A stretch of 64,000 bases of DNA from Marinicella sp. (GTDB taxonomy: Bacteria > Pseudomonadota > Gammaproteobacteria > Xanthomonadales > Marinicellaceae). Positions 2,180-57,731 of this stretch are shown here, piece by piece. A program made the position numbers and the translations under genes. The stretch spans positions 1,888,001-1,952,000 of the forward strand of contig OZ246001.1 of NCBI GenBank assembly GCA_965230295.1. The letters are read 5' to 3'. Below the pieces are notes generated by a model. The model was not told where the DNA came from, searched no databases, and was given only the letters and a program-made list of their open reading frames with translations. Position 1 is the stretch's first letter, and each line of letters starts with the position of its first letter.

Positions 2180-2293
2180 CGTCATTGCGAGGAGCTTTGC
2201 GACACCCAATCGAGTTGAGTGCAGGCTTAAGCAATCTCATGAATTTGAAATTAATTCAGGAGATTGCCACGGCACTTTGTGCCTCGCAATGAC
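2180..2293. repeat. CGTC/GTCAT-type REP-like palindromic element
   Basis: Terminal inverted repeats GTCATTGCGAGG (2181) and CCTCGCAATGAC (to 2293), with internal GCAATCTC/GAGATTGC arms. Confidence 0.85.
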
Positions 2294-46496: not shown

Positions 46497-46524
46497 CGTC
46501 ATACCGGCGAAGGCCGGTATCCAG
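46497..46524 (+). repeat. CGTC-tagged REP
   Basis: CGTCATACCGGC-GAA-GGCCGGTATCCAG palindrome. Confidence 0.8.
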
Positions 46525-49174: not shown

Positions 49175-49275
49175 GTCATCCTGAGTGCAGCCAAAGGATC
49201 TCCTGAGTCTGGAGCGTTGTTTAAAAGAAATGCTGGAACGTGTTTGGGAGATTCCTTCACTCGTTCGGAATGACG
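49175..49275. repeat. GTCATCCTGAG-type REP doublet (same family as the GIY-YIG flanks)
   Basis: GTCATCCTGAGTGCAGCCAAAGGATCTCCTG ... GGGAGATTCCTTCACTCGTTCGGAATGACG. Confidence 0.88.
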
Positions 49276-49339
49276 GCATTCATATAGGTGTGTCTATCAA
49301 ATTAGTTTGATTCTTTTGCAAGCTGTTACATCACGCACC

Positions 49340-49368
49340 TGGATCCCGGATCGGGGTCCGGGATGACG
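49340..49368 (-). repeat. CGTC-tagged REP
   Basis: Minus strand CGTCATCCCGGACCCCGATCCGGGATCCA. Confidence 0.8.
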
Positions 49369-54381: not shown

Positions 54382-54420
54382 AAAAAACAAGGCTGTGGAT
54401 GGTGCATCAACACAGCCTTT
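54382..54420 (-). terminator. Terminator between convergent genes
   Basis: AAGGCTGTG/CACAGCCTT stem with an A6 run on its left (U-tract on the minus strand). Confidence 0.55.
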
Positions 54421-54438
54421 AACGAGGTAAAAATGAAA

Positions 54439-54840
54439 TTATTTGACTTTGTAAACCACCGTTTGCCAATCATCTGATTGGTTGCTGGAGGCATCAAAAG
54501 CCACGTAATAGGATTTGTCTGCTTCCACAGTGATCTTCATGGTGGTTTTTAAATCTTTCAAGCCACGACGTTCTTTCAGTCCCATGACTTGTTTGGTGTA
54601 GTCGCTGTTGATTTGGGTGCTGAATTTCAATTCATACTCACCAGGTGCCAACCAAACAGCGCCATCGCGAACGATGACATTTTCGCCATTAACCATTTGC
54701 AGCTTCACCGGGAACAACTGTTTGGCATTGTTGGCATGACTCATCACGATCTTGGCAGATGGATCACTGGGCGATGCAAAATTAAATGCAAAAGCCGCAC
54801 TAGAGAGGATTAAGGTAAAAAATAATGTGATTGTTTTCAT
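54439..54840 (-). CDS. Small secreted hypothetical protein
   Basis: Signal peptide (AFA-F), beta-rich body with LAPGEYEL. GGAG RBS. Confidence 0.75.
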   Translation of the reverse strand: MKTITLFFTLILSSAAFAFNFASPSDPSAKIVMSHANNAKQLFPVKLQMVNGENVIVRDGAVWLAPGEYELKFSTQINSDYTKQVMGLKERRGLKDLKTTMKITVEADKSYYVAFDASSNQSDDWQTVVYKVK

Positions 54841-55038
54841 GGTCTGCTCCTGAATTTTTATGTCTATAAGTTTCGTTCATACACTTTGGGTTATTAAATG
54901 TTACACCTACGAAACTGAATGTAGTCTGAATTTTTGCACGTCATACCCAAGTATTCAAGAAAATTTGAACTCAATCACTGGCTTGTTAATCGAGGGAATT
55001 TGAATTATGATTCGAGTTCACTATTGATAAAAGGAATT

Positions 55039-55779
55039 ATGATGTCAAAACCAATCAACATTGGTGAAATTTTTGAGCGCACCAACACCACGTTTCAAAC
55101 ACACTTTTCATACCTGGCAGCCTTGGCCGGTATTTTCATTGCACTGGGCTATTTGATATCGACAGTTGGTGAATCCTTGATCATGAAATTTGAGATGTCA
55201 GCCCTCATCATAGTGATGCTGATTTCAATCACTGTTTATGCCAAATTAGCCATCATGGTTCATCGGTTGGTGATACTGAATGAAAAGGGGTTTGGTTATA
55301 TTTTTCAATGGCGAAGTGTTGAATTGAAATTCATTGGCTGGATTTTGGCCATCATCGGTGTTCTGGCGGTGTTGATGTTTTTCACCATCAGAATCAGCTT
55401 GTCTGGTTCGCCTTCCCACACCGGAGGCGGTTTTGGATCTGGCCTACTGGTGGTATTGGCACTTATGGTTGTTTTAGGGGTCATATTCTCACGCTTTGCT
55501 TTGATTTTCCCAGCCACTGCGGCGAACAAAAAACTGACTTTGGGTGATTCTTGGCAATTGACTTCGCAGCATAAATTCTTCATGTTTTTTCTGGCCATTC
55601 TGGTGCCCTATGTCACCAACCGAATCTTTCAAAAAATATCAACAGAACAATGGCTTTTGGTGTTGTTGGTTGAAGTGTTGGCAGTTTTGGTCATCATCTA
55701 TGAGGTGGGTTTGATTTCACATGCTTATGAGGCATTGGGCAATGTCAAAGAAGACAATCACAGTGATCAGTCATCCTGA
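55039..55779 (+). CDS. Hypothetical multi-pass membrane protein
   Basis: AAGGA RBS, about 6 TM helices, SWQLT motif. The stop codon lies inside the adjacent REP. Confidence 0.75.
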   Translation: MMSKPINIGEIFERTNTTFQTHFSYLAALAGIFIALGYLISTVGESLIMKFEMSALIIVMLISITVYAKLAIMVHRLVILNEKGFGYIFQWRSVELKFIGWILAIIGVLAVLMFFTIRISLSGSPSHTGGGFGSGLLVVLALMVVLGVIFSRFALIFPATAANKKLTLGDSWQLTSQHKFFMFFLAILVPYVTNRIFQKISTEQWLLVLLVEVLAVLVIIYEVGLISHAYEALGNVKEDNHSDQSS

Positions 55780-55915
55780 GTGCAGTCGAAGGATCTCCTG
55801 AATACAGCAGGCTTCTGGTATTACAGTAATTGGCAGTCGTTGGGAGATTCCTCCGCTCGCTTCACTCGGTCGGAATGACACGGGATTGTCACCCTAAGTG
55901 CAGTCGAAGGATCTC
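55770..55915. repeat. GTCATCCTGAG REP doublet plus an extra left arm, 3' of the GIY-YIG gene
   Basis: 55770-55879 reads GTCATCCTGAGTGCAGTCGAAGGATCTCCTG...GGGAGATTCCTCCGCTCGCTTCACTCGGTCGGAATGAC. 55888-55915 reads GTCACCCTAAGTGCAGTCGAAGGATCTC. Confidence 0.9.
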
Positions 55916-55931
55916 ATTAATTATGGAGTTG

Positions 55932-56219
55932 CTAGTATAAATCGGTGCCTAAATCTTTCCAGTCAGGATTGTGTGTGTTGATAAGATTGTCTTTTTTTCT
56001 TCGAGTCCACTTCTTTAGCTGCTTTTCTCTCGTTATGGCATTTTCGGGGTCATCGAATGTCTCATAATAAACCAGAAGATGTACGTTGTATTTACTGGTG
56101 AACCCTTTGGTTTGCTGCTGTTTGTGTTGATAAATCCGTTTGACTAAATTGCCAGTAATGCCGATATATAAAACGTTTTTATGCTTATTAGTAAGGAAAT
56201 AAACCCAATAATTTTTCAT
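55932..56219 (-). CDS. Stand-alone GIY-YIG nuclease (YhbQ/UPF0213-like)
   Basis: YWVYFL, LYIGIT, KRIYQH, FTSKY, LVYYE, AITREKQLK and NPDWKDL. Confidence 0.93.
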   Translation of the reverse strand: MKNYWVYFLTNKHKNVLYIGITGNLVKRIYQHKQQQTKGFTSKYNVHLLVYYETFDDPENAITREKQLKKWTRRKKDNLINTHNPDWKDLGTDLY

Positions 56220-56287
56220 GGATTGAGCTTATCTAAAATTTATGTGGTTATTAATCCTATAAATTCTGAAAGTGGTGTAAAAAAAGT

Positions 56288-56397
56288 CGTCATCCTGAGC
56301 GCAATCGAAGGACCTCCTGACTTTGGTGATTACTTTGGGTGCTGAATTGGTTAGTCGTTGGGAGATTCCTCCACTCGCTTCACTCGGTCGGAATGAC
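56288..56397. repeat. GTCATCCTGAG REP doublet, 5' of the GIY-YIG gene
   Basis: CGTCATCCTGAGCGCAATCGAAGGACCTCCTG...GTCGTTGGGAGATTCCTCCACTCGCTTCACTCGGTCGGAATGAC. The right arm is nearly identical to the 55770 copy. Confidence 0.9.
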
Positions 56398-56404
56398 ACT
56401 TGGC

Positions 56405-57544
56405 CTACTTAAACCATGGAACGGGATTGGTGGGGTCGGCGGCTTTGCGGATTTCAAAATAAACCCCGGGTGGATCGATGTTACCTGAGTTGCCAGCGGT
56501 GGCGATGACTTGATCGGCTTGAACCCAGTCGCCCACTTCAGCCAACAGGCTCTCGTTGTGTCCATATAGAGTCATGTACTCATCACCGTGGTCAATAACA
56601 ATCAGCAACCCATAACCACGCAACCAATCGGCAAAGGCCACCCGGCCATAAGCGGTGGCCAACACGTTCTCGCCAGCTTCGTCACCAATGACCACACCAT
56701 CCCAACGGCTGTAGCCTGCCCGCAATGAACGGTAAGAACGGATGATGTCACCAGAAAGGGGTTTGGTCAATTGGCCTTTTAGGCGAGCAAATGAAATGTT
56801 CTCACCCAGGTTTTCAGGGAGGTCATCCAGGTATTGGGTGATTTGTAACAACAGTTGATTCAGTCGAATGCTGTCTTGTTCCAGGGTTTCATTTTCTGAT
56901 TGATAGGCTTTGATGGTGTCACGTAAATTGGAGAGCACCACAGCCCGTTGTCGTTTTTTTTCCAACATGGCATCCTGTTCTGTTTTGAGCTGTGATTGTT
57001 CGCGTTCCAAATCGGCCTTTTGTTCGGTGATTTGAGCTTGATATTGCTCCAGTTGATTGATCTGCACAGCAATGCTTTCGATCAAATCATACAATTTATA
57101 TTGTAAATATTTGATCTGGTGCTGGGTGATTTCAGCATTGCGGGTGTTGGGGTTGAGCAGCATCATTTTCAGGATGCGGTCATGGTTGATAAAAATGTGT
57201 AACCGCAACAGTTCAGCCATTTGGTTTTTTTGTTCACTGATGCTGTCATTTTTCTGTTGGATTTCTAGCCCCAACACATTGATTTGTTGTTCAGCGGTGG
57301 CCACTTTGCTTTTGATGTCCCGAATTTTACGGCCTTGTAAGTTGATGCTCTGGTCTTGTGCTTCCAACTCCTTGATCAATTTGGCTTCTTCACCGGTGGC
57401 TTGATTCAGTTGATCTTTCAGGGCAATCAGTCGCTCCCGGATGTCAGCCAGTTGATTGTTGATGGCTGCTTCATCGACATCTTCCTGGGCTTCAACCGGA
57501 GTTGATACAGACCAGAAAATGAACAGAACAATCAATAAGCGCAT
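56405..57544 (-). CDS. envC: Murein hydrolase activator EnvC
   Basis: Signal peptide, long coiled coil, degenerate M23 (WDGVVI, ADWLRGYG, YGHN, YFEIR). Divergent from rhodanese-secB-gpsA. Confidence 0.88.
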   Translation of the reverse strand: MRLLIVLFIFWSVSTPVEAQEDVDEAAINNQLADIRERLIALKDQLNQATGEEAKLIKELEAQDQSINLQGRKIRDIKSKVATAEQQINVLGLEIQQKNDSISEQKNQMAELLRLHIFINHDRILKMMLLNPNTRNAEITQHQIKYLQYKLYDLIESIAVQINQLEQYQAQITEQKADLEREQSQLKTEQDAMLEKKRQRAVVLSNLRDTIKAYQSENETLEQDSIRLNQLLLQITQYLDDLPENLGENISFARLKGQLTKPLSGDIIRSYRSLRAGYSRWDGVVIGDEAGENVLATAYGRVAFADWLRGYGLLIVIDHGDEYMTLYGHNESLLAEVGDWVQADQVIATAGNSGNIDPPGVYFEIRKAADPTNPVPWFK

Positions 57545-57731
57545 GGGGTAATGGGGCACAACTTCAACTGACAACAGCGGCTCATGTTATCAAACTCATT
57601 GAACAGAAAAAACTGTTTTACTGATGATTCTGTTTCAAAGTCAGGTATATCCTCAGTTTTTCAGGGTTTAGACTTGATTTTTTGTGCTGATACCTTATAT
57701 TGTCCCTTTTTAATTTTTAGGCAGGAAAGCA

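Follow-up and report, generated by a model that had tools for sequence, protein, structure and literature searches.

The window analysed here is a 64,000-nt stretch of a Marinicella sp. genome (G000:C1:1888001-1952000; the genome comprises 4.0 Mb at a GC content of 44.0%), and our subject is a small nuclease gene within it together with the hairpin repeats on both of its sides. The gene lies at positions 55932-56219 on the minus strand. It is an intact open reading frame (ORF) of 95 aa and we treat it as an ssn-like gene for a single-domain GIY-YIG nuclease. The Pfam family GIY-YIG (PF01541) matches residues 3-76 of the 95 with an E value of 4.8e-19 and no second Pfam family was found in the protein. 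In an alignment of 12 diverse homologs the residues Y7, Y18, G20, R28, H32, E65 and N84 were invariant; we take these to be the catalytic positions of the GIY-YIG fold. The GC content of the gene is 35.4% compared to 44.0% for the genome, so the label AT-rich that the initial annotation had given to it stands. The three repeat-flanked GIY-YIG genes of this genome all show 35-37% GC.

On either side of the gene lies a doublet of about 110 nt. The two units of a doublet, e and f, differ from each other and converge, with the GTCAT tag of unit e on the plus strand (GTCATCCTGAGYGCARTCGAAGGAYCTCC) and that of unit f on the minus strand (GTCATTCCGACCGAGTGAAGCGAGYGGAGGAATCTCC). The repeat search returned a 34-nt unit in three copies (55770, 55888 and 56289; 88% identity to the reference copy e1) and a 47-nt unit in two copies (55835-55881 and 56353-56399; 98% identity). 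The left doublet (55770-55880) is formed by e1 and f1. Unit e1 (55770-55800, plus strand) consists of a GTCAT tag, a 5-bp stem ATCCT/AGGAT, the 12-nt loop GAGTGCAGTCGA and the tail CTCC, and unit f1 (55843-55880, minus strand) of a GTCAT tag, the stem ATTCC/GGAAT, a loop longer than that of e1 and again the tail CTCC. In the right doublet, unit e2 (56289-56319, plus strand) is 88% identical to e1 over 34 nt and unit f2 (56361-56398, minus strand) is 98% identical to f1 over 47 nt. The loops of e and f units measure 12-21 nt and share the build GAGCG...CGA, with GAGYGCARTCGA in e. The spacers within the left and the right doublet differ and thus the two doublets are not recent copies of each other. 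Units f1 and f2 have direct orientation, are 518 nt apart and bracket the gene. An extra e-type unit with the degenerate tag GTCAC (55888-55921, plus strand) lies 10 nt from the stop codon of the nuclease gene; it faces inward, which is the usual orientation for units downstream of Ssn-type genes. ORF, Pfam and repeat searches therefore confirm the initial description of a 95-aa AT-rich GIY-YIG gene between two doublets with an additional arm at 55888.

Genes of this type were described by Chenal et al. 2025 (Nat Commun 16:2388, PMC11893778). According to their report SsnA of N. meningitidis is a 94-aa single-domain GIY-YIG protein (cd10448) that binds the repeat CGTCATTCCCGCGMAVGCGGGAATCYRG, named NTS, only as single-stranded DNA (ssDNA) and on one strand only. 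The enzyme cleaves ssDNA upstream of the hairpin and leaves double-stranded DNA (dsDNA) and RNA untouched. The gene arrangement is NTS-ssnA-NTS, and a degenerate Ssn-related motif (SRM) was found at least once near 71% of the homologs and on both sides of 42%. The Discussion compares this arrangement with insertion sequences and with the REP-associated tyrosine transposases (RAYT), the repetitive extragenic palindromic (REP) elements and the bacterial interspersed mosaic elements (BIMEs). The domestication of a mobile element is put forward there as a hypothesis only; the text reports a transformation phenotype and no transposition.

Association of the hairpin units with GIY-YIG genes

To obtain the genome-wide set of units we iterated blastn-short to closure from 12 seed units. 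This yielded a total of 154 units, divided among 12 classes (e 15, f 9, i 1, g 7, h 7, g2 5, j 29, j2 2, a 16, b 27, c 23 and d 13). All of the classes a-i start with (C/T/A)GTC followed by AT. The sequence GTCATCCTGAG has 15 and 5 occurrences on the two strands of the genome compared to an expectation of 0.8 per strand. Based on a crude ORF-based gene set 142 of the 154 units are intergenic. In 21 cases two units are joined to a convergent doublet, with 17-87 nt between them, which accounts for 42 of the 154. A simple search for GTC directly before a perfect stem of 6 bp or more was rejected as too noisy, with 1243 matches compared to ∼850 by chance (an estimate, not computed).

PF01541 matches five times in the genome: once in a 615-aa frame, presumably UvrC, and in four small genes. 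Units within 250 nt on both sides were found for 15 of the 3329 crude genes and three of the four small GIY-YIG genes are among these 15; no flanking units were found at the remaining one, at genome position 840634. We then asked the same question across genomes. Among 975 candidates there were 972 relatives of the 95-aa protein at E ≤ 1e-5, one of them 88% identical and the others at most 67%. Named relatives include Rickettsiales, Patescibacteria, Bacteroidota and Bacillota. A separate scan of species-representative genomes yielded 599 relatives. As homologous loci we used the best 80 of these 599 (49-63% identity, from many phyla) with flanks of 1.5 kb, and the flank counts cover the 77 loci for which both flanks have a length of at least 150 nt. 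Inward-facing GTC-tagged hairpins were observed upstream in 65 and downstream in 54 of the 77 loci compared to 7.7 and 9.1 in shuffled flanks. Both sides carried such a hairpin in 51 loci compared to 0.8 after shuffling, an enrichment across genomes that bears out the association suspected in the initial annotation. The tag itself also stands out: among all 64 three-letter tags in front of a perfect hairpin of at least 5 bp, GTC ranks first (94 upstream plus 93 downstream, median 35; upstream tags were counted on the gene strand and downstream tags on the opposite strand). Many flanking units contain the exact NTS core TGTCATTCCCGCGAAAGCGGGAATCC, for example at the loci L016, L037 and L077.

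The type of hairpin follows the type of nuclease. We divided the units closest to the gene into short-stem (≤6 bp) and long-stem ones, and the upstream and downstream classes agreed in 49 of 52 loci. The nearest protein neighbour carried the same class in 53 of 68 cases, with a mean of 35.8 after permutation of the labels and none of 2000 permutations reaching the observed number; this is a nearest-neighbour label permutation rather than a tree-based test and the figure may be inflated by host relatedness. With this reservation the repeat subtype tracks nuclease relatedness, a point that the initial annotation had put forward for checking. For the 12 best neighbours of the 95-aa protein we found nine short-stem loci, one long-stem locus and two without any hairpin found. 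The short-stem class also flanks homologs in Bacteroidota and Clostridia (L002, L003, L004, L020 and L066). Within the genus, 20 of 24 genomes carry Ssn2/3-type genes. All 16 genomes with more than six matches to the unit patterns have such a gene and the four gene-less genomes have 2-6 matches, where the comparison uses two loose unit patterns and a threshold of six that was set with the counts in view, and the genomes are not independent of each other owing to their relatedness.

The pairing within the short stems is supported by covariation. We searched the genome with the loose pattern GTCATYNYGA...RNRATCYC, which does not demand pairing, and found complementary triplets in 48 of the 52 matches compared to 3.25 expected by chance. 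The triplets are of eight types. It is this covariation, and not the folding energy, that supports the stem of the e and f units.

Probable assignment to the Ssn family and possible mode of action

With high confidence we regard the locus as an Ssn-type system, that is, a gene for a 95-aa Ssn-family GIY-YIG nuclease bracketed by its own cognate hairpin repeats. The biochemistry of the homologs and the association tests above indicate that the CGTC/GTCAT hairpins very probably have their cognate enzyme in the small protein. The initial annotation had proposed just such a role, and the proposal is supported by the published binding and cleavage data (PMC11893778), by the association with the flanks and by the tracking of the repeat class. 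Its further statement that no mechanism had been demonstrated, with the implied novelty, is contradicted by the same publication. For membership in the family we can also refer to the hosts of the relatives: five of the six named host species of the 50-62% identical homologs are listed in Supplementary Data 4 of that paper, all of them with the entries 'ssnA homolog YES' and 'cd10448 YES', and the sixth named species is absent from Supplementary Data 4. In the broad sense the SRM features, namely a GTCAT tag, a paired stem and an ATC tail, are present on both sides of the 95-aa gene.

Several observations weigh against this assignment. NCBIfam has no model for the family, and the only match of the protein is to TIGR01453 with 17.4 bits compared to a cut-off of 56.05. 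The link to Neisseria SsnA and cd10448 is a probable one, drawn through the host species of the relatives. Cleavage of ssDNA by the 95-aa protein, with the short-stem units as substrate, would be expected by analogy to homologs, from which alone this activity is known. As ssDNA, lone e and f units fold at -3 to -4.8 kcal/mol, with z values of ∼0 relative to shuffled sequences. The published SRM motif matches none of the 75 units of the classes e, f, g, h, i, g2, j and j2, and it has no match at genome positions 1943770-1944400, which hold the units flanking the 95-aa gene. Finally, the inward-facing unit on the upstream side, f2, lies ∼140 nt before the start codon, and an e unit of opposite orientation separates the two; this is less tidy than at most homologous loci.

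The doublets fold at -9.6 to -15.9 kcal/mol with z values between -1.6 and +0.6. Of the 'palindromic doublet' of the initial annotation the tagged paired units thus hold up and the strong palindrome does not, and the unremarkable folding stability of single e and f units speaks against an explanation by thermodynamics alone. For none of the four small GIY-YIG proteins did a family in NCBIfam pass its cut-off, and a sequence search of the PDB returned UPF0213 proteins only, with a weak match of the 95-aa protein to BH0048 (1zg2, E 8e-4). The SRM motif has 64 sites in this genome, whereas the reversed sequence gives 23. Among the 154 units 46 are matched, and all 46 belong to the 79 units of the classes a-d. 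Supplementary Data 4 gives no SRM enrichment for Hymenobacter aerophilus (15 observed compared to 32 shuffled) and Yeosuana marina (0). The Bacteroidota species of the loci L004, L020, L059 and L066 are marked there as having an ssnA homolog, with SRM counts of 0-15 that do not exceed the shuffled counts, and yet at these loci we find short-stem GTCAT hairpins beside the gene. As the motif misses the short-stem class, the published association of 71% and 42% is probably an underestimate.

The hairpins themselves belong to a group that had been catalogued earlier. Di Nocera et al. 2013 (BMC Genomics 14:522, PMC3733652) described CGTC-tagged REPs in the families CGTC-1 to -4, with a CGTC or TGTC tag, stems of 8-9 bp that start with AT, loops of 4-5 nt, the tail CCA and frequent inverted dimers. 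They equated CGTC-1 with the dRS3 element of Neisseria and stated that these REPs seem to be without a dedicated transposase (PMC3733652). The longer NTS motif was in turn found in nearly 50% of the dRS3 copies (PMC11893778). The Ssn-related motifs are a branch of the CGTC-tagged REPs. A citation of the earlier survey is missing from the 2025 paper; 'Nocera' and 'CGTC-tagged' have no occurrence in PMC11893778. A full-text literature search with six unit core sequences returned unrelated papers only, and a search for Ssn papers from 2024 onwards returned only the 2025 paper, the supplements of which may hold further unit classes.

Compared to the Ssn/NTS-SRM system, the locus shares the single-domain GIY-YIG protein of about 94 aa and the bracketing of its gene by (C/T)GTCAT hairpins with an ATC-containing tail. 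It also shares units scattered across the genome, close homologs with the exact NTS core and hundreds of relatives across phyla. It differs in that the flanking units have a 5-bp stem, a loop of 11-22 nt and a CTCC tail and fall outside the SRM motif, in the e/f heterodoublets, in the presence of three nuclease paralogs with three unit sets in one genome and in the number of units (154 compared to hundreds in Neisseria or Wolbachia). With the CGTC-tagged REPs the units have in common the CGTC/TGTC tag followed by a stem starting with AT, the unpaired tails and the inverted dimers. The families a-d fit the 8-9-bp stem, 4-5-nt loop and CCA tail, whereas stem length, loop length and tail place the e and f units outside all four published families. 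The RAYT proteins (TnpA_REP, HUH Y1) with their GTAG REPs, BIMEs and REPINs likewise combine an enzyme gene with recognised flanking hairpins, inverted doublets and ssDNA recognition, but the fold is HUH instead of GIY-YIG, the tag is GTAG instead of CGTC/GTCAT, and the published Ssn chemistry does not include strand transfer. Homing endonucleases of the I-TevI type and the UPF0213/YhbQ proteins share the GIY-YIG catalytic core. Unlike the former, the protein has 95 aa only, no DNA-binding extension and no intron context; unlike it, the 18 YhbQ-like homologs examined had no flanking hairpins of this type.

By analogy to the homologs the system may act as follows. Where DNA becomes single-stranded, during replication or repair or as incoming DNA, the tagged hairpin would form. 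The protein would recognise the stem and the 5' CGTCAT tag jointly, binding a single strand only, and would cut the bound strand a few nucleotides 5' of the tag; dsDNA and RNA would be no substrates. The cognate units here would represent a variant class, often arranged as convergent e/f pairs, in which a 5-bp stem encloses an 11-22-nt GAGCG...CGA loop and is followed by a CTCC tail. Judging from the orientation of the units, the gene-strand tags of f2 (56398) and f1 (55880) are direct repeats 518 nt apart, and cuts 5' of f2 and f1 could yield an ssDNA piece of ∼520 nt that comprises the gene together with the doublet upstream and the unit downstream of it. As to the role of the system, two options appear likely: the restriction or modulation of motif-bearing ssDNA, as suggested by Neisseria transformation, and the self-propagation of the gene-plus-repeat unit. 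Effects on recombination near the bracketed genes are a further option.

This is a new locus in a family published in 2025 and its confirmation is useful, though the basic picture remains unchanged. The 2013 survey reported no dedicated enzyme for the CGTC-tagged REPs and the 2025 paper supplies a cognate nuclease (PMC3733652, PMC11893778). The present locus shows the pairing of nuclease and CGTC repeats in a free-living gammaproteobacterium and it indicates that an entire class of cognate units escapes the published search motif.

Insertion of the gene and alternative explanations

Downstream of the right doublet, with its stop codon 7 nt from f2, lies the gene (envC in the initial annotation) of a 389-aa protein, in which Pfam places an M23 peptidase domain at the C-terminal end. 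We located this gene in 18 genomes of the same genus, with a DNA identity of 65-77%, and the GIY-YIG gene was beside none of them. On the other side lies a 281-aa ORF (54934-55779) without a Pfam match, which had been labelled a membrane protein. An empty site, which the initial annotation had suggested to look for in relatives, does exist: in G010, G012 and G006 the gene of the 281-aa ORF is followed after ∼50-180 nt by the peptidase gene with no GIY-YIG gene in between. The empty site of G006 holds a degenerate GTCATCATGAGCG unit, and in G015, G004 and G007 the gene of the 281-aa ORF is missing too. Across 24 congeners there are 0-5 Ssn2-type genes per genome, all of them on other contigs, and the best identity to the 95-aa gene is 63%. 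This is no closer than the matches in other phyla (up to 65%, apart from one metagenome protein with 88%). As none of the 18 congeners has a GIY-YIG gene at this site, vertical conservation at the locus is refuted and the gene is a lineage-specific insertion. Horizontal gain fits these observations, which do not identify what moved the gene.

In the 281-aa ORF the insertion has left a trace, as the ORF terminates within unit e1 and its TGA stop comes from e1 GTCATCCTGA. Compared to the congeners, the C-terminus of the ORF has thus been altered by the inserted repeat. At the cassette site of the closest congener, G003 (L082, G003:C10), we observed an unrelated two-copy tandem repeat of ∼270 nt.

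We also looked for signs of mobility in contigs over positions 54400-57600. One joint, from 55885 to 56361, was encountered in run X1 on a single 301-nt contig with a shorter side of 39 nt. It is explained by the 98% identity of f1 and f2 and is no evidence of excision; no excision joint was found in these contigs, and the stretches left uncovered in runs X2-X4 carry no information on this point. A target-site duplication is not definable since the congeners are only 66-77% identical in the neighbouring gene. The initial annotation had seen in the locus an autonomous element with non-autonomous satellites whose enzyme nicks or mobilises the repeats. The part concerning a cognate nuclease stands. 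Mobilisation and the autonomous element with satellites are hypothetical, as they are in the Discussion of the 2025 paper. The support for mobilisation is circumstantial and consists of the empty site in the congeners and a copy number that varies without synteny.

Among the alternatives to the Ssn-type system the one that survives best is a REPtron-like autonomous element, in which the nuclease would serve as transposase of the doublets (as REPIN-like satellites) and of its own gene via ssDNA intermediates. The initial annotation had read the locus in this way, and the Discussion of PMC11893778 brings up the same idea as a hypothesis. This explanation is compatible with the nuclease activity that we propose and adds a strand-joining step. 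The absence of the cassette from the congener sites just described, the varying number of Ssn2-type genes at other places with at most 63% identity, the GC content of 35-37% in a genome of 44%, the 42 of 154 units in 21 convergent doublets and the direct f repeats 518 nt apart around the gene all speak in its favour. We know of no GIY-YIG enzyme, however, that joins strands. The sole joint is accounted for by the identity of f1 and f2, no target-site duplication can be defined, the spacers of the two doublets differ and the published phenotype is, in the text of the article, transformation and not transposition (PMC11893778). On balance we consider this explanation unlikely.

A second alternative starts from the repeats. 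GIY-YIG homing endonucleases exist, and the gene could be a homing-type selfish gene: the nuclease would cut pre-existing repeats and its gene would be copied by repair into the broken clusters, which makes the repeats targets and landing sites instead of products. This would suit the position of the gene within a cluster of complete doublets, not between simple terminal inverted repeats, as well as the nature of other bracketed genes (an HNH endonuclease and ars-like genes with SBF, LMWPc and ArsR-type HTH_5 domains). Against it stand the lack of a DNA-binding extension together with the score of 17.4 bits for TIGR01453, the model of GIY-YIG homing endonucleases of the group I intron type, far below its cut-off, and the fact that the unit class tracks nuclease relatedness across phyla, so that co-inheritance of gene and units fits better than opportunistic landing. 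Moreover, the enzyme family is reported to act on ssDNA only (PMC11893778). Homing is in our view quite improbable.

An unrelated juxtaposition, in which ordinary REP-like elements (terminators or RNA stabilisers) happen to lie beside a horizontally acquired nuclease gene, would be in keeping with the intergenic position of 142 of 154 units, with the RNA-level roles proposed for REPs by Di Nocera et al. 2013 (PMC3733652) and with the absence of any Rfam match at the gathering threshold in the whole window, but it is disfavoured and extremely improbable in view of the association statistics within the genome and across the 77 loci, the tracking of protein relatedness by unit class and the direct binding and cleavage by homologs (PMC11893778).

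Further nuclease/hairpin pairs and remaining features

Outside the window the genome contains two more repeat-flanked GIY-YIG genes. The first is a paralog at genome positions 3082096-3082386, the product of which is 47% identical to the 95-aa protein. It is bracketed by inverted class-c CGTC hairpins at 3081957 (plus strand) and 3082431 (minus strand), with i, h and g units further upstream. All of its 12 best neighbours are long-stem loci and one of these has in addition a short-stem unit on one side. Even for paralogs that share a genome, the hairpin class thus goes with the relatedness of the nucleases. The specificities are accordingly predicted to be orthogonal and could serve as ssDNA tools.

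The second is a UPF0213-like gene at genome positions 1617926-1618246 (L091:1495-1815) with 37% identity to the 95-aa protein. Its product matches the UPF0213 structures 1zg2 (E 3e-17) and 1ywl (E 1.3e-11). The gene is flanked by class-j units of the form CCGTTCAC-TGAGCGGAGTCGAA-GTGAAC that have no GTCAT tag and occur 29 times in the genome. For comparison we used 28 homologous loci from 300 genomes of the class, with L109 left out. Hairpins of the type XYZ-TGAG...YCGAA-Z'Y'X' were observed in the flanks of 10 of the 28 loci compared to 0.003 per flank after shuffling, and 18 loci had none. Flanked and unflanked proteins separate by nearest neighbour in 29 of 29 cases, with a permuted mean of 14.8 and none of 5000 permutations reaching this number. 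In the genus the j core is present in 7 of 24 genomes, with 28, 9, 8, 5, 5, 5 and 1 copies. Close homologs of the 1617926 protein (at least 64% identity) occur in the genomes with 9, 8 and 5 copies, and in two genus genomes with 5 copies no close homolog was found. A related nuclease clade has a hairpin family without the CGTCAT tag. The words 'UPF0213' and 'paralog' are absent from the main text of PMC11893778, the PDF supplements of which may hold an analysis of paralogs.

Tentatively, and with more doubt than confidence, we suggest that this genome houses three orthogonal nuclease/hairpin pairs, one of them without the CGTCAT tag, and that the cassettes are mobile with the doublets as non-autonomous satellites. 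Should the three enzymes each be specific for their own hairpin in cutting ssDNA, the Ssn principle reaches beyond the published motif and perhaps beyond cd10448. If this were true, the CGTC-type REPs and a new CCGTTC-type family would gain the dedicated enzymes that have long been missing.

The window contains further hairpins away from the nuclease gene and all of those named in the initial annotation are present. A gene-less doublet at 49175-49274 pairs an e unit (49175-49205, plus strand) with a shortened f-like unit (minus strand, ending at 49274). Two classical CGTC-tagged hairpins, of family a at 49339-49368 on the minus strand (CGTCATCCCGGACCCCGATCCGGGATCCAG) and of family b at 46497-46524 on the plus strand (CGTCATACCGGCGAAGGCCGGTATCCAG), fit the published SRM search motif. 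A convergent doublet of GTCATTGCGAGG-type units spans 2181-2293 and is made up of a class g2 unit (2181-2242, plus strand) and a g-like one (minus strand, ending at 2293).

The f-type unit of the locus (55845-55880 and 56363-56398) was also encountered on other short contigs of the public runs X1, X2 and X4. Its flanks there are unrelated, which places the unit in other sequence contexts, or in other organisms, within those samples. When translated, the units give rise to spurious ORFs and C-terminal extensions: a 56-aa ORF with the peptide SFDCAQDDD covers 56229-56399 on the minus strand, and the tail ...TLTRDDR of protein P0039 is a unit-derived C-terminal extension. Unit-encoded peptides in databases are likely to be repeat artefacts.

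Units on both sides were observed for some genes other than nucleases of the GIY-YIG type as well. They bracket a row of genes for an SBF/ACR3-like transporter, an ArsC-like low-molecular-weight phosphatase and an ArsR-type regulator (L133, G000:C1:2094400-2097200) and the gene of a 207-aa HNH endonuclease (L132, G000:C1:1315000-1317000). The unit-bracketed ars-like and HNH genes recall the clustering of NTS around particular genes in Neisseria.

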